Assembly: GCA_031412295.1 (NCBI GenBank)
Contig: JANOCU010000032.1
Span: 66,956-130,955, forward strand
Reading direction: 5' to 3'
From: Bacteroidota bacterium
GTDB taxonomy: Bacteria; Bacteroidota; Bacteroidia; Palsa-965
Length of the DNA stretch: 64,000 nucleotides
Shown here: piece after piece, positions 9,813 through 61,737 of the stretch
How positions within the stretch are numbered: position 1 is the first letter of the stretch
Layout: every line of letters begins with the position of its first letter
Program-made: the position numbers and the translations under genes
Notes under the pieces: model-generated
Database searches by the model: none
What the model was told of the DNA's origin: nothing
What the model saw: only the letters and a program-made list of their open reading frames with translations

Positions 9813-9885
9813 GCCGGTGTAGCTCAGCTGGTAGAGCAGCTGATTTGTAATCAGCAGGTCGGAGGTTCGAATCCCTTCGCCGGCT
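9813..9885 (+). tRNA. tRNA-Thr (anticodon TGT)
   Basis: The acceptor stem GCCGGTG pairs with CGCCGGC. D arm is GCTCAGCTGGTAGAGC. Anticodon stem-loop is GCTGA-TTTGTAA-TCAGC. T loop is TTCGAAT. Confidence 0.8.
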
Positions 9886-9960
9886 CATTTTTTTTATTAA
9901 AAATGAATCAAATAATTGTCACAGGGGAGGCTAAGGATATCAGCTTCATCAATGGCTTCG

Positions 9961-10042
9961 GGGGAGATACTCAAGCGGCCAACGAGGACAGACTGTAAAT
10001 CTGTTGACTTAGTCTTCACAGGTTCGAATCCTGTTCTCCCCA
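9961..10042 (+). tRNA. tRNA-Tyr (anticodon GTA)
   Basis: The acceptor stem GGGGAGA pairs with TCTCCCC. Anticodon loop is CTGTAAA. The long variable arm is typical of tRNA-Tyr. Confidence 0.85.
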
Positions 10043-10109
10043 CACATCCACCCGGCTTGGGTGGATACCTGCAAGGCAAATGCAGTAGTAATCGGAAGAT
10101 AAAAATTAA

Positions 10110-10182
10110 GCGGAAGTAGCTCATTTGGTAGAGCGATAGCCTTCCAAGCTATAGGTGGCCGGTTCGAGCCCGGTCTTCCGCT
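10110..10182 (+). tRNA. tRNA-Gly (anticodon TCC)
   Basis: The acceptor stem GCGGAAG pairs with CTTCCGC. The anticodon stem-loop is ATAGC-CTTCCAA-GCTAT. Confidence 0.85.
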
Positions 10183-10304
10183 CAAAATAAAAAGAGCACG
10201 GCACGTCCAACGAAGCTTCAGCGCAGTTGGATCTTCCGCTCAAAAGAAAAGTTATCCCGAAAGGGAAAAGTGAAAATAGAAGTCCATTGCATCTCCTGAT
10301 CATC

Positions 10305-10376
<72 letters not shown>

Positions 10377-10506
10377 CACAAAGTTCCGGCTTTGAGAGTA
10401 AACAGCTCAACCAGGGGGAATGAGGCAACCGGATTTGAAAAATATTGAAGAGTAACATTACGAAACACAGAAACACAAACAATAATCAACACCAAAAACA
10501 ATAGCA

Positions 10507-11694
10507 ATGGCAAAAGAAAAATTTGACCGCTCCAAACCACACGTGAACGTTGGTACCATCGGTCACGTTGACCACGGTAAGACAACACTTACTGCTGCAA
10601 TCACAACTGTACTTGCATCTAAAGGTCTCGCGGAAATCCGCGACTTTTCGTCAATCGATAACGCTCCTGAAGAAAAAGCACGTGGGATCACAATTAATAC
10701 ATCACACGTTGAATACTCAACTGCTGCGCGTCACTACGCTCACGTAGATTGTCCTGGTCACGCTGACTATGTAAAAAACATGGTTACAGGTGCTGCCCAA
10801 ATGGACGGTGCTATCCTTGTTGTAGCTGCAACAGATGGTCCTATGCCACAAACACGTGAGCATATCCTTCTTGCTCGCCAGGTTGGTGTTCCTGAACTTG
10901 TTGTGTTCATGAACAAAGTTGATATGGTTGATGATCTTGAGCTTCTTGATCTCGTTGAGATGGAGATCCGTGATCTTCTTGTGTTCTACAAATTCGATGG
11001 AACAAAAACTCCGATCATTCGTGGATCTGCACTTGGCGGATTGAATCAGGAGCCGAAATGGGTTGAGAAAATCATGGAATTGATGGATGCTGTGGATACT
11101 TATATCCCGACTCCTACACGTGATAAAGACAAGCCTTTCCTGATGTCTGTTGAGGACGTTTTCACAATCACAGGTCGTGGAACAGTTGCAACTGGTCGTA
11201 TCGAAACCGGCGTTGTAAACGTTGGTGAAGATGTTGAGATCATCGGAATGCAAGAGGAAAAACTCAAATCAACCTGCACAGGTGTTGAGATGTTCCGTAA
11301 GCTTCTTGATCGCGGCGAAGCTGGTGACAACGTTGGTCTTCTCCTTCGTGGTATTGATAAAGATGCAATCCGTCGTGGTATGGTTATCGCGAAACCGGGT
11401 TCTATCACACCTCACCACGATTTCAAAGCTGAGATCTACGTTCTTAAAAAAGAAGAAGGTGGCCGTCACACGCCATTCCACAATAAATACCGTCCACAGT
11501 TCTACTTCCGTACAACAGATGTAACAGGAGAAATCGAACTTCCGGAAGGACGCGAAATGGTAATGCCTGGTGATAACGTTACAATCACAGTTAAATTGAT
11601 TGTTCCGATCGCTATGGATAAAGGTCTTCGTTTCGCGATCCGCGAAGGTGGCCGTACTGTTGGCGCTGGCCAGGTAACTGAAATTCTTAAATAA
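10507..11694 (+). CDS. tuf: Translation elongation factor Tu
   Basis: 395 aa. [18 protein letters not shown] and NKVD are the G-domain motifs. Confidence 0.97.
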
Positions 11695-11750
11695 ATAAAA
11701 GGTACCTGTTTTCCTTAGCGTACGCTGAGGCGAACAAGATCACAGCAGAT

Positions 11751-11788
11751 CGAAGCTGTTCCCCGCTCAAACGGGGAACAGCTTTCGC
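11751..11788 (+). terminator. Stem-loop downstream of tuf with a 14-bp perfect stem and no U tract
   Basis: GAAGCTGTTCCCCG, loop CTCAAA, then CGGGGAACAGCTTC. It may be a processing or pause site before tRNA-Trp. Confidence 0.4.
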
Positions 11789-11820
11789 TGCCAAAAGGAC
11801 CTCCGGTAACCGAAACAAAA

Positions 11821-11891
11821 ACGGGAATAGTTCAATGGTAGAATAGCGGTCTCCAAAACCGTTGATCTTGGTTCGAGTCCAGGTTCCCGTG
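11821..11891 (+). tRNA. tRNA-Trp (anticodon CCA)
   Basis: The acceptor stem ACGGGAA pairs with TTCCCGT. The anticodon stem-loop is GCGGT-CTCCAAA-ACCGT. T loop is TTCGAGT. Confidence 0.85.
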
Positions 11892-46339: not shown

Positions 46340-47656
46340 ATGAGAAACCAACGATCAAACGGAAGCTCTTCTTCACAAAACAGTGAAAGAGGTTCACATG
46401 GCCAGGACAAAAGCCATGGCAACAGAAATACCTATTCCAATTCATTCGGTAATTCAAGACAAGAAAGGAATTCACATAGCGGGTACAATGAAAATGATCA
46501 GCGCAGTTCACGTTATGGTTCGAACAATGAAACAGGTCAGTACAGAAGAGATGAAAATCCGCGCGGACGTTCTATTGACCAGGACGACCGAAATAACAGG
46601 AATAATAATTCGCGTAATTCAGAACACGGCAACTCACGCGGCGGATCAAATCAAAATGATAATCGCAGCTCACGAAATAATTCAACGAATGCAGGTTCCG
46701 CTTCCCGGAATTCTCAGGGTGGACAGGGGAATTCACGCAGTCGCTACCAGCGCGATGACGATACTAATAGTGCACGCTATAACTCATCATCCGGTTCAGG
46801 TAATTCTTCCGGCAGGGGAGGAAATCAACGCGACGAGCGCAGCGCACGATATGGCAATGCAGGGAATTCCGGTCAATACGGAAATCAAGGTGGCGGACGT
46901 TACGACAGTGATTTGAGCTCACGTCGCAGCTTCAATGATTTTGAAGATGATGATCGTGAATCAAGAGAAGAAGATTTCGATTCCTTCTATGAAAATGATT
47001 CACGCAGTCACGCATTCGATAGGAATTCGCAGAATCGTTCCGGCCAGGGAAACAATCGCAATTCCTCCTACAACGATCATGATGCGCGCGGCTCATATGA
47101 TGACGACGATGATGACGATTTCGAAGACGATATCGAGAATGAATACGAAGATGATTCAGACGACGAGCAATCCGGCCACGGATATTCATCACGGGGAAAT
47201 AATTCGCACGGTAACAATTCTTATGGAAGAGAAAATTCATCGCGTGGAAATAATTCGGGCTCATCATATGAAAGAGAAAATTCATCGCGAGGAAATAATT
47301 CCGGTTCATACTACGGAGGCGGCAATTTTTCACGAAATAATTCGGGTTCATCGTACGGCGGAGAAAACAATTCACGTGGAAATAATTCCGGCTCATCATA
47401 TGGAAGAGAAAATACATCCCGCGGAAATAATAATCCCGGTTCATCCTACGGAGGAGGAAATAATTCGCGCGGAAATAATTCCGGTTCATCTTATCGTGGA
47501 GAAAGCTTTTCAGGAAAGGGCTTTTATGCCACTCCCGACGAACAAACCGGCGTAAGCAATTCAAATTTGTCAGGAGGAGATTATGATGATGACAGCTCCT
47601 CTAACGGCAGCCAACACACCGGCTCCCGCAACTCCCGCTCAACACGAGAGTGGTAG
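46340..47656 (+). CDS. Low-complexity N/S/G/R-rich intrinsically disordered protein with an acidic core; hydrophilin-like
   Basis: 438-aa ORF. The acidic block is DDDDDDDFEDDIENEYEDDSDDEQ. It is followed by degenerate 15-aa repeats such as SSYGRENSSRGNNSG. A perfect terminator hairpin lies 25 nt downstream. Alternative-frame ORFs in the same region are likely repeat artefacts. Confidence 0.5.
   Translation: MRNQRSNGSSSSQNSERGSHGQDKSHGNRNTYSNSFGNSRQERNSHSGYNENDQRSSRYGSNNETGQYRRDENPRGRSIDQDDRNNRNNNSRNSEHGNSRGGSNQNDNRSSRNNSTNAGSASRNSQGGQGNSRSRYQRDDDTNSARYNSSSGSGNSSGRGGNQRDERSARYGNAGNSGQYGNQGGGRYDSDLSSRRSFNDFEDDDRESREEDFDSFYENDSRSHAFDRNSQNRSGQGNNRNSSYNDHDARGSYDDDDDDDFEDDIENEYEDDSDDEQSGHGYSSRGNNSHGNNSYGRENSSRGNNSGSSYERENSSRGNNSGSYYGGGNFSRNNSGSSYGGENNSRGNNSGSSYGRENTSRGNNNPGSSYGGGNNSRGNNSGSSYRGESFSGKGFYATPDEQTGVSNSNLSGGDYDDDSSSNGSQHTGSRNSRSTREW
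47185..47520 (+). repeat. Degenerate 45-nt tandem repeats, about 7 copies, inside the low-complexity ORF
   Basis: The peptide period RGNNSGSSYGRENSS is repeated. Confidence 0.6.
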
Positions 47657-47680
47657 AAAATTAAAATTCGTCATATAAAA

Positions 47681-47716
47681 AGAGACGGCAGGAATTTTTT
47701 CCTGCCGTCTCTTTTT
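47681..47716 (+). terminator. Rho-independent terminator
   Basis: AGAGACGGCAGG, loop AATTTTTT, then CCTGCCGTCTCT followed by TTTTT. Confidence 0.75.
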
Positions 47717-47730
47717 AATTCAATCGCTAC

Positions 47731-47775
47731 CTTTTGTCAGACTGAGTAACGAAGTGTATCGAAGGCTGACAAAAG
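47731..47775. repeat. Palindromic repeat element, copy 1 (45 nt)
   Basis: CTTTTGTCAG, then ACTGAGTAACGAAGTGTATCGAAGG, then CTGACAAAAG. Confidence 0.8.
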
Positions 47776-47789
47776 ATAGAGATTGAATG

Positions 47790-48096
47790 TTATTTCTTTT
47801 TGGCCCTTGGCTTCTTCTTTGAAAGGGCAGGTAATTTTTCTTCTTGTCCATTAATTAACGCTTCCTTTTTTGCACGCGACCACCCCTTAAGTTGTTTCTC
47901 ACGTGCAATAGCAAGATTTACATATTTAAAATCTTCCCACCAAACTAAATGAACCGGCCTGCGATCTGCAGTATTACGAACCTTCATTAATTCCTTCCTC
48001 ATGCTGTTCAAATCTCAGGTCAAGATTATTCGTCATTCCAACATAATAAGAATCAGCAGCGCAAAGTAAAATGTAAGTAAAGTAACGATCTTTCAT
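47790..48096 (-). pseudogene. GIY-YIG nuclease-family small protein gene disrupted by a frameshift
   Basis: The N-terminal part runs 48096 to 47974 and reads MKDRYFTYILLCAADSYYVGMTNNLDLRFEQHEEGINEGS then stop. The C-terminal part is in another frame and reads ...KVRNTADRRPVHLVWWEDFKYVNLAIAREKQLKGWSRAKKEALING. Together they match the about 100-aa GIY-YIG family, whose typical sequence is Y.YIL...G..YIG.T.DL.RR..EHN.G...YT...RPW.LVY.E.F.....A..RE.Q.KGWSR.KK. The frames differ by one nt near 47975..48000. Confidence 0.6.
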
Positions 48097-48252
48097 AGCT
48101 TATAATTAACAATCATTTATCAGACGAATTAACGAAAAGTTTCAAAACAAATAAATGCTTTAAGAAATCATTCTTCGTTTTTTTTCTCAGACTAAGCTGT
48201 GAAAATTATCGAATACGGCTAAATAATATCAATGAAGAGAATCCCTAAATTC

Positions 48253-48277
48253 CTTTTGTCAGACTGAGTAGCGAGTA
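48253..48277. repeat. Palindromic repeat element, truncated copy (left arm and part of the loop)
   Basis: CTTTTGTCAGACTGAGTAGCGAG, then divergent sequence. Its upstream flank AATAATATCAATGAAGAGAATCCCTAAATTCC resembles the flank of copy 4 (AATAGTATCAATGAAGAAGTTCACATAGTAGC). Confidence 0.6.
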
Positions 48278-48318
48278 ACAACGAATCAAATCAAATAATT
48301 CCAAGAAAATGTCCCCAC

Positions 48319-48373
48319 AGTTCCTTTTGTCAGACTGAGTAGCGAAGCGTATCGAAGGCTGACAAAAGGAACT
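48319..48373. repeat. Palindromic repeat element, copy 3, with an extended stem
   Basis: AGTTCC-CTTTTGTCAG-ACTGAGTAGCGAAGCGTATCGAAGG-CTGACAAAAG-GGAACT. Confidence 0.8.
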
Positions 48374-48454
48374 AGCGCAATATTACTTTTTGTCACCGTG
48401 AATATCAAAGTTGCCCGAAGAGCACCAAATAGTATCAATGAAGAAGTTCACATA

Positions 48455-48507
48455 GTAGCTTTTGTCAGACTGAGTAGCGAAGCGTATCGAAGGCTGACAA
48501 AAGCTAC
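48455..48507. repeat. Palindromic repeat element, copy 4, with an extended stem; it abuts the stop codon of the CBS gene
   Basis: GTAGC-CTTTTGTCAG-ACTGAGTAGCGAAGCGTATCGAAGG-CTGACAAAAG-GCTAC. The 45-nt core is identical to copy 3, but the flanking 5 to 6 nt differ and remain complementary. Confidence 0.8.
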
Positions 48508-49886
48508 TAGCACAACGCCTTTATTATATCATGCCGCGTAATAATAAAATTCGAATCCGTTTTAAAATCCCTCACCAGCACAGCAGGATTTTCAGGCGTG
48601 ATCATCGACGCGAGCGATTCAACAGGAGTAGAAATATCCACGAATGGAAAAGCCGCCTGCATGATCGTTTCAACAGCATCCGATTTTTTATCCGGATTTT
48701 TCACAAGACTGTCGAACAATTGCATTTCGTTTATCGATCCCACAATTCTTCCGCCGTTTGTTACAGGCATTTGAGAAAAATCATTTTCACGCATTATTTT
48801 CACCGCGCGTTCTATCGGCTCAGTACATTCAATCGCTTTTAAAGTTCCGCCTTTGATCGTCGATACCACATCTTTCGCAGTCTGACCTTTCGGCTCAAAA
48901 AATCCTTTCTCACGCATCCAGTCGTCGTTGAACATTTTTCCAAGGTAACGTGTACCGTGATCATGGAAAATTACAACAGCCAGGTCACCTTCTTTCAGCT
49001 GCGCTGCCAATTGAACAACACCCGCCATTGCAGAACCTGCAGAATTCCCTGCAAAAATTCCTTCTTCTTTCGAAATGCGGCGTGTCATCACAGCAGCATC
49101 TTTATCCGTTACTTTTTCAAACAAATCAATAATGCTGAAGTCAACATTCTGCGGCAAAAAATCTTCCCCGATTCCTTCTGTGATGTAAGGGTAAATTTCA
49201 TTCTTATCGAAAATGCCGGTCTCTTTATATTTTTTGAAAATAGATCCGTACGTATCAATTCCCCAGCATTTAATATTCGGATTTTTCTCTTTCAGATATT
49301 TTCCTGTTCCGCAAATTGTTCCGCCCGTTCCAACGCCAACAATCAAATGCGTAATTTTTCCTTCCGTCTGTTCCCAAATTTCCGGACCCGTTTGCTCATA
49401 ATGCGCCTGCGAATTCGAAAGATTATCATACTGGTTTGGCTTCCACGAATTCGGAACTTCTTTTATCAAACGTGAAGAAACAGAATAATAAGAACGCGGA
49501 TCTTCCGGATCAACGTTGGTCGGACAAACAATTACTTCCGCACCAAAAGCCTTCAGCGCATCCACTTTTTCTTTCGACTGTTTATCAGTAGTAGTAAAAA
49601 TGCATTTGTAACCCTTAATGATCGCCGCAATCGCCAACCCCATTCCTGTATTACCCGAAGTGCCTTCAATAATTGTTCCTCCCGGCTTCAGTCTTCCGTC
49701 CTTTTCAGCATCCTCAATCATCTTGAGCGCCATTCTGTCTTTAATAGAATTACCCGGATTAAAAGTTTCAATCTTGGCGTAAACTTTCGCTTTCGTCAGC
49801 CCTTTGGTAAGGTTATTAATACGCACCAGCGGAGTATTTCCGATTGTACCGAGAACGTTGTCGTAAACTTGTTTGGAAGGATTCAC
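48507..49886 (-). CDS. Cystathionine beta-synthase-like enzyme: PLP-dependent cysteine-synthase fold plus a C-terminal CBS-domain pair
   Basis: 459 aa. The cysK/CBS catalytic core is GNTPLVRINNL...KIETFNPGNSIKDRMALKMIEDAEKDGRLKPGGTIIEGTSGNTGMGLA. C-terminal tandem CBS domains are present. It probably uses a GTG start. Confidence 0.7.
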   Translation of the reverse strand: MNPSKQVYDNVLGTIGNTPLVRINNLTKGLTKAKVYAKIETFNPGNSIKDRMALKMIEDAEKDGRLKPGGTIIEGTSGNTGMGLAIAAIIKGYKCIFTTTDKQSKEKVDALKAFGAEVIVCPTNVDPEDPRSYYSVSSRLIKEVPNSWKPNQYDNLSNSQAHYEQTGPEIWEQTEGKITHLIVGVGTGGTICGTGKYLKEKNPNIKCWGIDTYGSIFKKYKETGIFDKNEIYPYITEGIGEDFLPQNVDFSIIDLFEKVTDKDAAVMTRRISKEEGIFAGNSAGSAMAGVVQLAAQLKEGDLAVVIFHDHGTRYLGKMFNDDWMREKGFFEPKGQTAKDVVSTIKGGTLKAIECTEPIERAVKIMRENDFSQMPVTNGGRIVGSINEMQLFDSLVKNPDKKSDAVETIMQAAFPFVDISTPVESLASMITPENPAVLVRDFKTDSNFIITRHDIIKALC

Positions 49887-51413: not shown

Positions 51414-51485
51414 AAAAGGTTGGTGGTAGGTGGTCAAAAAGGTTGGTAGTAGGTGGTCAAAAGGGTTGGTGGTCGGTACAAAAAT
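51414..51485. repeat. Three tandem, roughly 23-bp G/T-rich repeats in a divergent promoter region
   Basis: AAAAGGTTGGTGGTAGGTGGTCAAA, then AAGGTTGGTAGTAGGTGGTCAAA, then GGGTTGGTGGTCGGTACAAAAA. Confidence 0.7.
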
Positions 51486-51540
51486 TTTTTGCACGTTATT
51501 TGCTAATTCAATAACTGACTGACTACTGACTATTGACAAC

Positions 51541-51572
51541 TTTTTTTTCACCACCAACCACCAACCTTTTTT
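51541..51572. repeat. Inverted partner of the 51414..51485 repeats
   Basis: TTTTTTTTCACCACCAACCACCAACCTTTTTT is the reverse complement of AAAAGGTTGGTGGTTGGTGGTGAA. Confidence 0.7.
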
Positions 51573-60019: not shown

Positions 60020-61051
60020 TTAATCCGGTTTGTAAGGCGGAGTGACTTCGCCGATAATATTTAATACTACTACCTGGTCATTATTATACCTAATGATAAT
60101 CTGCTTATGCTGTACTCCTCTTCTGGCATCCGTATTAAGCAGGTATTTTATTACACCCTTTCCACCGGGAGGAATCGGTTCACGAGGTGCTTCAGCAACA
60201 TCACATCCGCAGGCAGTAACACAATCAGTTATTTGAATGGGTGTTGTTCCGGTATTTGTAAAAGGAATTTCAAGCCTTACATATTCACCCTGTTTTACTT
60301 TTTCAAAATGATAAGTTGTTGAATCGAATTTCATATACTGCACTGCATAAACCCATCCTGTCAATTGCAGCTGAACACTTCCATTTTCACTGTTCGATTG
60401 AATGTCGATCGATTTACTCAATGGTCCTGTTCGGTCAGAAGTGGTTTGCGTTATTTTAATTACACCCGATTCACCCGGCGGAATTTCATTCTTTGGCCAT
60501 TCCGCATAGTTAGCGCCATGACCAAATACTACATTCCTGATGATGAGATTTGCTTTACCTGCATTTGTAAAATGAAATTCTTTAACAATCAATGTTCCCT
60601 GTTCCACTTTTCCGAAACTGATTGATGTCGAATCAAACCTGATGAGCGCAAACGGACCGGTCGTGATATTTCCTTTTATATGCAGCACAATATTTCCATC
60701 CCGATTATTCGATTCGATCGTAGTTGTTTTATCCTGCAACCCCATTTTACCATCCGTACAAAAACGAATAACAATCACTCCCTTATTTCCCGGCGCTATC
60801 GGCTCTTTCGGATAATCTGCAACCGTCCCACCTGAACCGCGCGCACCAGTAATAATAAGAGGGGATTTCCCTGTATTCTTAAAATAGAAATTCTCCAGGA
60901 CCTGTGTACCCGGTTTTACATCACAAAAATTTTGAGTTAAAGAATCAAACGTCATCACCGGCTCATTCAGATCGAGTGGGGGTGGAATACTTTGTGCTTC
61001 CGAATTCGCATAACAAAAAAGAAGAATAAAAAAGAGGAGAAATTTTTTCAT
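60020..61051 (-). CDS. Triple-DUF1573-domain protein, paralog 3
   Basis: 343 aa containing three consecutive DUF1573-like modules. Confidence 0.7.
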   Translation of the reverse strand: MKKFLLFFILLFCYANSEAQSIPPPLDLNEPVMTFDSLTQNFCDVKPGTQVLENFYFKNTGKSPLIITGARGSGGTVADYPKEPIAPGNKGVIVIRFCTDGKMGLQDKTTTIESNNRDGNIVLHIKGNITTGPFALIRFDSTSISFGKVEQGTLIVKEFHFTNAGKANLIIRNVVFGHGANYAEWPKNEIPPGESGVIKITQTTSDRTGPLSKSIDIQSNSENGSVQLQLTGWVYAVQYMKFDSTTYHFEKVKQGEYVRLEIPFTNTGTTPIQITDCVTACGCDVAEAPREPIPPGGKGVIKYLLNTDARRGVQHKQIIIRYNNDQVVVLNIIGEVTPPYKPD

Positions 61052-61093
61052 GCAGCGGGATTTGGGTTTATCTAACCAACAAAAATCAAGCCT

Positions 61094-61281
61094 GCCTCAC
61101 CCCGTGGGAGATTTCATCTCACGAACATTTCCAATCCCCCTCTCCAGGGAGAGGGGGATTGGAAGTTTTCATAGAAAGGTTTCAGCAAAATTTCGTGAGA
61201 AGAAAATCTAAATCCCCCTCTCCCCCGGAGAGGGAACACCACAATGCCCATCGCTATAAAAATCTCCCAAAGGGGTGAGGC
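61094..61281. mobile_element. MITE-like 188-bp element with about 21-bp terminal inverted repeats and internal GGGGG/CCCCC palindromes
   Basis: The left TIR is GCCTCACCCCGTGGGAGATTT and the right TIR is AAATCTCCCAAAGGGGTGAGGC. The internal perfect palindromes are CCAATCCCCCTCTCC-AGGG-AGAGGGGGATTGG at 61131..61162 and CCCTCTCCC-CCGG-AGAGGGA within 61213..61235. There is also CATCTCACGAA ... TTCGTGAGAAG. Confidence 0.45.
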
Positions 61282-61305
61282 ACAAAAATTTAGTTTTAAC
61301 CAAAA

Positions 61306-61737
61306 TTAATTCCCGCCTGTGGCCGGTGTGCCGGCGGGAGTTACTGTACCTTTAATTTTTACGTCAACAATTGCATTCGATGCGTTCGATGTTACTGTGA
61401 TCTTTTTGTCAAACATTCCCGGACGATTTGTTGTATCATATTTTACTTTAAAAGAAGCTGTTCCCCCGGGAGGAATCGGATCTTTTGGCCAGCCTTCAGG
61501 TAATGTAGTGCAACCACACTGACCTTTGATGCTGGTAATTATCAATGGTGTTTTTCCTGTATTTGTAAATGTAAAAACACGAATTGCCTCTGTTCCGTAA
61601 ACAATACTTCCGAAGTTGATCTCTGTTTCTGCAAAAGTGATCACAGGTGCATTCGGATCTGCAAGAGCAACGGGTGCTTGTGCAGACAAACGCATGGAAG
61701 CGACAAGCAAAAACAATACAGGAATGAATCGTTTCAT
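61306..61737 (-). CDS. DUF1573-domain protein, paralog 4
   Basis: 143 aa. FTFTNTGKTPLIITSIKGQCGCTTLPEGWPKDPIPPGGTASFKVKYDT. Confidence 0.7.
   Translation of the reverse strand: MKRFIPVLFLLVASMRLSAQAPVALADPNAPVITFAETEINFGSIVYGTEAIRVFTFTNTGKTPLIITSIKGQCGCTTLPEGWPKDPIPPGGTASFKVKYDTTNRPGMFDKKITVTSNASNAIVDVKIKGTVTPAGTPATGGN

Follow-up and report, generated by a model that had tools for sequence, protein, structure and literature searches.

A 188-bp nested inverted repeat at the place of an intrinsic terminator between two DUF1573 genes of a Bacteroidota bacterium

The spacer between a gene for a 143-aa DUF1573 protein and a gene for a 343-aa protein with three DUF1573 domains (the triple-domain gene) was found to contain a nested inverted repeat of 188 bp at positions 61094-61281 of the window, the whole 64-kb stretch of DNA that was analysed. 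All coordinates are positions in the window unless they carry the label of a related locus (L009-L030). The structure is a real, non-random and strongly structured insert of a known general kind, palindromic and associated with a terminator, and was seen in one lineage and at a single locus. Two inverted copies of a unit of about 75-95 nt, unit A and unit B, each with the CCCTCTCC/GGAGAGGG hairpin, make up its length. The explanation favoured here, which as a whole is given about an even chance of being correct from the comparison of sequences, is that the insert represents lineage-specific structured spacer DNA beside a terminator, and that unit A would end or stabilise the transcript of the 143-aa gene. 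The sequence-only reading of the same DNA had proposed a MITE-like element or, as an alternative, a highly structured RNA or regulatory hairpin. Its alternative fits the results better, and the MITE label is only partly supported by them.

Anatomy of the insert and its flanks

The features of the insert and of the adjacent DNA are listed in Table 1. Imperfect terminal inverted repeats of about 21 bp, as described in the sequence-only reading, were confirmed at both ends of the structure, and the two outer arms pair throughout apart from a 1-nt indel and a single mismatch (21/22 alike). A third inverted pair in that description was recovered by the repeat finder (TCTCACGAA at 61117-61125 and TTCGTGAGA at 61192-61200) and corresponds to the cores of a 19-nt arm pair with 84% complementarity. 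Two perfect palindromes had also been described. Hairpin 1 was verified with its 18-bp stem, whereas the second, hairpin 2, forms just 8 bp on the + strand (CCCTCTCC at 61216-61223 with GGAGAGGG at 61227-61234) and attains 10 bp on the - (sense) strand only, through two G.U pairs. The arms of hairpin 1 are the 13-mer AATCCCCCTCTCC and its complement, and this 13-mer recurs at 61211-61223, in hairpin 2.

Table 1. Features of the 188-bp structure and its surroundings, in order along the sense (-) strand
Feature	Position	Strand	Sequence or description	Basis
Gene for 143-aa DUF1573 protein, upstream; the 188-bp structure lies in its 3' region	61306-61737	-	Orthologs 76-87% identical	ORF list, orthologs, Pfam PF07610
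Post-stop flank, common to nearly all related loci	61289-61305	-	TTTTGGTTAAAACTAAA	Alignments
Leftover T-run of classical intrinsic terminator	61284-61288	-	TTTTT	Alignment with L028
Outer inverted-repeat arm, end motif of unit A (right terminal repeat of the sequence-only reading)	61260-61281		AAATCTCCCAAAGGGGTGAGGC	
Unit A, older conserved copy	61188-61281	-	End motif GCCTCACCCCTTTGGGAGATTT, 25-nt linker, hairpin 2, U-rich tail to TCTCACGAAATTT	Identity to L016 and L028, nhmmer
Hairpin 2, terminator-like stem	61214-61236	-	UUCCCUCUCC-GGG-GGAGAGGGGG, 10 bp including two G.U	Terminator scan, folding
U-rich tail after hairpin 2	61198-61213	-	AUUUAGAUUUUCUUCU	Sequence, terminator scan
Middle-stem 3' arm, partner 61112-61130	61187-61205		Core TTCGTGAGA at 61192-61200	Repeat finding, folding
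Unit B, inverted second copy	61093-61169	+	End motif, linker with TCTCACGAA, hairpin 1	Profile match
Hairpin 1	61127-61166		18-bp stem (17 Watson-Crick pairs and one G.U), about -35 kcal/mol	Repeat finding, folding
Outer inverted-repeat arm, end motif of unit B (left terminal repeat of the sequence-only reading)	61094-61114		GCCTCACCCCGTGGGAGATTT	
Conserved flank directly upstream of the triple-domain gene ATG	61052-61093	-	AGGCTTGATTTTTGTTGGTTAGATAAACCCAAATCCCGCTGC	94% identical to L016:594-644
Triple-domain gene (343 aa, three DUF1573 domains), downstream	60020-61051	-		ORF list, homologs

The inverted-repeat structure of the 188 bp was thus real, but it was resolved into two inverted copies of a shorter unit and not into one symmetric unit. 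The layout of the unit is an end motif GCCTCACCCC(N2-3)GGGAGATTT, about 25 nt, CCCTCTCC-loop-GGAGAGGGGGATT and a T-rich tail. A profile constructed from three unit A sequences (window, L016 and L028) matched unit B at E = 2.4e-6, and the linkers of the two units were dissimilar. An absence of coding capacity had been stated for the whole element; ORFs of 53 aa and 45 aa are present inside 61094-61281 and one + frame is free of stop codons throughout, but neither ORF gave a Pfam match, and all six frames of the structure gave nothing at E <= 10 against 5.8 billion proteins, a search with weak sensitivity below about 30 aa.

The flanking genes are all encoded on the - strand. On this sense strand the 188-bp structure begins 24 nt past the stop codon of the 143-aa gene and leaves 42 nt between its end and the triple-domain gene's ATG, and hairpin 2 is located 70 nt past the same stop codon. 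The flank at 61052-61093 was conserved also in L009, L011 and L030, and because it is highly conserved and abuts the ATG, it is suggested to be a candidate promoter or leader of the triple-domain gene. The triple-domain gene itself (60020-61051) diverges far faster than its neighbours; compared with L016:637-1343 it showed 64% identity over 61% of its length, with a differing number of domains, and the flanking aminotransferase and 134-aa DUF1573 protein share 98-99% of their residues in these two loci.

The spacer in related lineages

Syntenic contigs of relatives were located through homologs of the flanking proteins, and the 188-bp structure was missing from the orthologous spacer in six related lineages. 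In L024, L029, L011-L015 and L030, a canonical terminator, GAAA(A)CGCGGTTCAGRAATGAGCCGCG-T7-8, is positioned directly behind the conserved TAATTTTGGTTAAAACTAAA, and there is no insert. The same terminator is accompanied by an unrelated GGTGATT-rich stretch in L009, and a different canonical terminator is found in L025-L027, in each case with no insert. L030 represents an empty site: its spacer measures 109 bp, and the flank on either side is orthologous. Since the 188-bp sequence is absent from the spacers of six lineages, it did reach this site at some point, by insertion or replacement.

In L028 (read set SRR22198322), the canonical terminator is followed at once by a homolog of the 188-bp structure. 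The sequence of L028 reads AAACTAAA-TTGAAAACGCGGTTCAGGAATGAGCCGCG-TTTTTTTT-GTGCCTCGCCCC and that of the window reads AAACTAAA-TTTTT-GTGCCTCACCCC; the classical terminator hairpin (about 30 nt) was deleted in the window, with the T-run left at 61284-61288. The left junction is identical in the two loci, TTTTTGTGC being joined to CTC (that is, TTTTTTTTGTGC to CTCGCCCC). The closest relative, L016 (GCA_046596275.1, JBKJMR010000471.1), whose aminotransferase gene showed 93.6% nucleotide identity to that of the window and 76% identity at fourfold sites, contains unit A only, 3 nt from the conserved right flank, and 94 nt that include the unit B stretch are absent. Unit A was 84% identical to L016:505-590, and the right flank was 94% identical.

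Other nested palindromic repeats occupy L016:196-520 in the same spacer. There, the two arms of a 27-nt inverted repeat, CCCATCGGGCAATGTCATTAAGTTAAG (207-233 and 486-512), lie on either side of four copies of CAGGTCGCACCTACGGCGCT, two direct and two inverted. The gene caller had extended the downstream ORF of L016 through unit A (start at 522 versus 637). Repeats of the GGTGATTGGTGA type were observed in L009 in the spacer where the window has the insert.

The spacer is a hot spot, with differing inserts in L009, L016 and L025. Three terminator solutions occur in it among relatives with 143-aa proteins 76-87% identical to that of the window. The terminator stem of L028 (1130-1172) differs from that of L030 (520-560) by a compensatory change of C-G to U-A (ACGCGG..CCGCGU versus AUGCGG..CCGCAU), and L025 has an unrelated terminator hairpin in the same position as the canonical one. 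From this stem change and the different hairpin of L025, the terminator cassette turns over while the flanks stay conserved. The presence or absence of the insert is at odds with the similarity of the 143-aa genes, L030 being empty yet closest to L028 (85% nucleotide and 90% amino acid identity), a pattern that is easier to reconcile with mobility or recombination than with plain vertical inheritance.

The sequence-only reading had further suggested that insertion helped to separate or rearrange the paralogs. This was unsupported, as in L009 and L011, neither of which carries the insert, the genes follow one another as in the window (205/183/143 aa, triple-domain gene, 143/126 aa, aminotransferase). 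In L028, one breakpoint of a deletion does lie inside the insert homolog; the deletion extends from a point within the 188-bp structure (after GAGATGAAATCT) as far as the final codons of the triple-domain gene. Alignment of L028:1325-1345 with window 60020-60045 gave the junction of GAGATGAAATCT with AATCCGCAATACAAAACGGATTAA, and the whole triple-domain gene is deleted in L028. The loci L025-L027 are likewise without a triple-domain gene.

An assembly artefact is considered unlikely, because syntenic genes are present on both sides and parts of the structure recur in two independent assemblies (L016 and L028).

Sequence constraint on unit A

When the window was compared with L028, 65 of the 78 positions of the unit A core were identical (83%), versus 61% at fourfold sites in the adjacent gene (p = 1.2e-5). 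Identity over the other 100 aligned columns was 64%, about the neutral level, and a shuffled control gave 44 +/- 3%. As the 64% identity exceeds the shuffled control and the 83% identity of the core exceeds that of the fourfold sites, the whole block is homologous between the window and L028, with constraint only on the sense-strand left arm and hairpin 2. These values point to purifying selection on the unit A core, and the stretch of L028 homologous to unit B has changed at the neutral rate (64% identical).

Terminator-like character of unit A

Hairpin 2 has the make-up of an intrinsic terminator: a GC-rich stem-loop with a U-rich tract behind it, both on the sense strand and soon after a stop codon. 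The terminator consensus scan flagged 61236-61214 (- strand), with 10 pairs (6 G-C) followed by ATTTAGATTT. The G.U pairs of hairpin 2, which form on the sense strand only, are kept in L016 and L028 in the same imperfect form, and its tail is U-rich in the window and L016 and poor in L028, which retains the classical terminator. The loci without the insert (L009-L015, L024-L027, L029 and L030) and L028 have a canonical terminator where the window insert starts.

In the favoured explanation, unit A, on the sense strand, immediately follows the T-run that belongs to the classical intrinsic terminator of the 143-aa gene, and would have been inherited in place in at least three lineages. With the classical hairpin lost here, hairpin 2 and its U-rich tail are the only remaining terminator-like signal on the sense strand. 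Hairpin 2 most likely ends or stabilises the transcript of the 143-aa gene, and most likely insulates the triple-domain gene, whose conserved putative promoter or leader flank begins right past the insert. Unit B may be understood as an inverted copy whose pairing with unit A produces the MITE-like symmetry and whose rate of change is about neutral; hairpin 1, with its perfect stem, probably arose recently when template switching or conversion copied an arm of hairpin 2. Several points count against this explanation. Hairpin 2 by itself folds no better than shuffles of matched composition, and its U-tract is interrupted. The DUF1573 genes may be transcribed together, and a terminator would then be superfluous at this site. 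A terminator role accounts neither for the near-perfect outer arms nor for the perfect stem of hairpin 1, and the distribution of the insert departs from the similarity of the 143-aa genes.

Search for further copies

No second locus was found in any sequence searched, and every homolog was found at one orthologous site. There were no copies in the 64-kb window beyond 61094-61281, and the profile of unit A detected only unit B beyond its own source sequences in the 278 kb made up of the window and the fetched loci (about 214 kb, of which about 130 kb came from related Bacteroidota). By pattern search, the end motif was found nowhere else in the 64 kb (chance expectation, 0.01 matches), and even with 3 mismatches no further match in the window was obtained that could mark a parent IS. 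An exact scan for the end motif in GTDB species-representative genomes revealed no family member, and blastn against plasmids and phages gave nothing.

Several candidates from these scans were rejected. Eight single end-motif matches in GTDB genomes belonged to unrelated taxa (near the roughly 17 expected by chance, by hand estimate), and the two that were inspected lay inside or at the end of coding sequence. The three-motif scan of JGI metagenomes gave one match, on an unrelated high-GC contig with the same vocabulary in another organisation, which was no homolog. In IMG/VR, matches to the hairpin pattern were generic phage terminators and one 39-nt tandem array, and the single match of the end-motif scan reads as coding.

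Motifs of the C-/G-rich vocabulary recur in intergenic hairpins of distant bacteria. Two unrelated contigs contain arrays of it, L018:1985-2105 (IMG/VR) and L023:2715-2830 (JGI), and the shared vocabulary comprises CTCACCCC, CCCTCTCC...GGAGAGGG and GGGAGAT. One such array is a 39-nt tandem repeat, CTCACCCCAACCCTCTCCCGAAGGAGAGGGGGATTTT, in three copies.

These results bear directly on the proposal that the insert is a true MITE, that is, a non-autonomous element, multicopy in its source genome, with a transposase that recognises GCCTCACCCC...GGGAGATTT ends and that may prefer sites behind terminator T-tracts. Terminal inverted repeats of 21-22 nt bound an element shorter than 500 bp (188 bp) that has strong structure and no recognisable coding function. 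Orthologous sites are empty in six lineages, including L030, the distribution does not track the similarity of the 143-aa genes, the unit occurs twice at the locus, and the other nested palindromes in the spacer of L016 imply that the site accumulates such elements. Single-copy-per-genome MITEs and terminator-like SPRITE repeats are both on record (PMC10969869).

On the other side, no target-site duplication was found. No direct repeat adjoins the insert, which is bordered by ...TTTTTGT and AGGCTTGATT..., and the nearest one, ACAAAAAT, is 7 nt from its left end. Nor is the insertion clean: measured against the empty site L030, the window lacks about 11 nt of the ancestral spacer (TATTTTTTAGC). 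All homologs found reside at this one locus, with no other copy in the window, the fetched loci, the GTDB representatives, the JGI metagenomes, the plasmids and phages or the ORFs of the 5.8 billion proteins. A core conserved above the neutral level beside a drifting remainder argues for a host function and not for a young selfish copy. The architecture and the empty sites expected for a MITE were seen here, the duplication and the clean insertion were not, and no second locus was found in the sequence searched; a true MITE is judged unlikely. In the sequence-only reading, a single-copy sequence that has no flanking direct repeats and is conserved in place in relatives was to be taken as a regulatory hairpin rather than a mobile element, and this appears largely to describe the present case, with homologs in place in L016 and L028 and the same left junction.

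Origin of the symmetry by local copying

The symmetry of the insert could also have arisen in situ, if errors of local inverted duplication or template switching had copied the left arm and hairpin 2 rightward, with no transposition and no function. Several details of the sequence agree with such a history: the arms of hairpin 1 are the 13-mer AATCCCCCTCTCC of hairpin 2, the L028 stretch homologous to hairpin 1 forms no hairpin, and L028 has a private perfect 10-bp inverted pair, TTTGTGCGAT/ATCGCACAAA, around hairpin 2. The right half evolves at about the neutral rate, and by eye the outer arms of the window are more alike (21/22) than the unit A arm is to its ortholog in L028. What this history leaves unexplained is the origin of a block of about 190 nt that is common to L028 and absent from six lineages, as well as the constraint on the unit A core, and the dissimilar linkers of units A and B are unexpected for a simple recent inverted duplication. 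As an account of the whole insert it is rated quite improbable.

The absence of the right arm in L028 was considered as a sign of symmetry generated in situ and was rejected, the arm having been lost with the triple-domain gene in the deletion. Because that deletion removed the arm, L028 is uninformative on whether the right (unit B) outer arm is ancestral.

Folding and RNA families

On the + strand, the 206-nt region folded at -97.6 kcal/mol (z -10.4); the value for the - strand was -101.3 kcal/mol (z -7.7), and none of 200 shuffles (0/200) matched the real value. The folding proposed as a check in the sequence-only reading was thereby borne out on both strands. Hairpin 2 alone gave -15.8 kcal/mol (z -0.37), no better than composition-matched shuffles. 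An alternative fold was predicted in which the end motif pairs with both arms of hairpin 2. Over the 61094-61281 region, Rfam gave nothing at gathering thresholds and, at E <= 10, sub-threshold generic hairpin matches only (eukaryotic miRNA and lncRNA models). In the consensus fold of the unit A homologs (window, L016 and L028) there were no compensatory changes, and three sequences are too few for such a comparison.

Control of the triple-domain gene by a structured small RNA or a cis-regulatory leader encoded here, although in keeping with the very stable structure predicted on both strands, the conserved core and an alternative pairing that could form a switch, is very unlikely in view of the lack of any Rfam family even at E = 10, the lack of compensatory pair changes among the three homologs, the persistence of the insert in L028 despite the deleted triple-domain gene, the presence of this gene without the insert in L030, L011 and L009, and the conserved promoter-like flank that lies downstream of the insert.

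Comparison with known systems

The comparisons below concern resemblance, and no membership in a MITE, SPRITE or REP-doublet family is claimed. In proteobacteria, REP doublets (BIME/REPIN) consist of two inverted palindromic units that form one long imperfect hairpin; they are located downstream of genes, where they act as terminators or mRNA stabilisers. REPINs are present in tens to hundreds of copies and depend on RAYT (a Y1 transposase). The insert resembles them in that two inverted, short, palindrome-bearing units form one long super-hairpin downstream of a gene, and differs in the length of its unit (about 75-95 nt versus about 25-35 nt).

The Rho-independent terminators of the relatives (L009, L011, L024, L028, L029 and L030, and the other one in L025) share with hairpin 2 the post-stop position, the strand, the GC-rich stem and the U-rich tail. 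Hairpin 2 differs from them in a stem made of homopolymer-like C/G runs, in its interrupted U-tract and in its location inside a super-hairpin of 188 nt.

Bacterial MITEs (reviewed in PMC10969869) include Correia/CREE of Neisseria, ERIC and MITEAba12. Like the insert, such elements are about 100-400 bp in length, intergenic and non-coding, have terminal inverted repeats, form a long hairpin, may contain terminator or promoter signals and vary in presence and absence. Unlike them, the insert has no target-site duplication, dispersed copies or partner IS detected in the sequence searched, its homologs are at one orthologous site, and half of it is under purifying selection. SPRITEs, described as terminator-like small repeat elements (PMC10969869), are likewise small units with a GC-rich hairpin core and a T-rich tail like that of an intrinsic terminator, and they cluster or nest with other small repeats, as in the spacer of L016. 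They are multicopy in one genome, whereas here two adjacent inverted copies are present in a Bacteroidota host, and the two were compared by description, not by sequence.

Other repeats and features in the window

At 47676-48525, at least four copies of a hairpin unit of about 47 nt, CCTTTTGTCAGACTGAGTAGCGAAGCGTATCGAAGGCTGACAAAAGG, were observed (47718-47788, about 48250, 48319-48373 and 48437-48525). This family differs from the structure at 61094-61281 and is clearly multicopy within the window. Its copies surround a small - strand ORF (47790-48011) that matched the C-terminal part of a GIY-YIG nuclease domain (E = 1.2e-4), and this ORF may be a truncated GIY-YIG gene with associated repeats. 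A unit bounded by inverted repeats at 51414-51571 has three tandem AAAAGGTTGGTGGTAGGTGGTC on its left; an inverted copy, TTTTTCACCACCAACCACCAACCTTTT, follows about 100 nt further right, immediately before the start of a gene. Rfam at gathering thresholds identified five clustered tRNA genes at 9813-11891. An ORF of 438 aa at 46340-47656 is extremely low in complexity; it is rich in N, S, G, R and D and has GNNSRGNNSGSSYG-like units that recur.

Significance

The structure calls for caution, in that inverted-repeat architecture alone is insufficient for calling a MITE. Within one spacer, the relatives exhibit rapid structural turnover, from a canonical hairpin or a different canonical hairpin to a canonical hairpin plus the insert and to the insert alone. 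The locus offers a concrete place to examine whether the function of a host terminator can be taken over by a small palindromic insert, and it would bear on a major open question only if a dispersed family were found. That the unit is a member of an undescribed, terminator-mimicking family of mobile palindromes (SPRITE- or REPIN-like) in uncultivated Bacteroidota is a decidedly doubtful proposition. If it were true, mobile palindromes would land behind the T-tracts of terminators, take over termination and let the resident terminator be lost, and intrinsic terminators would be exchangeable cassettes.
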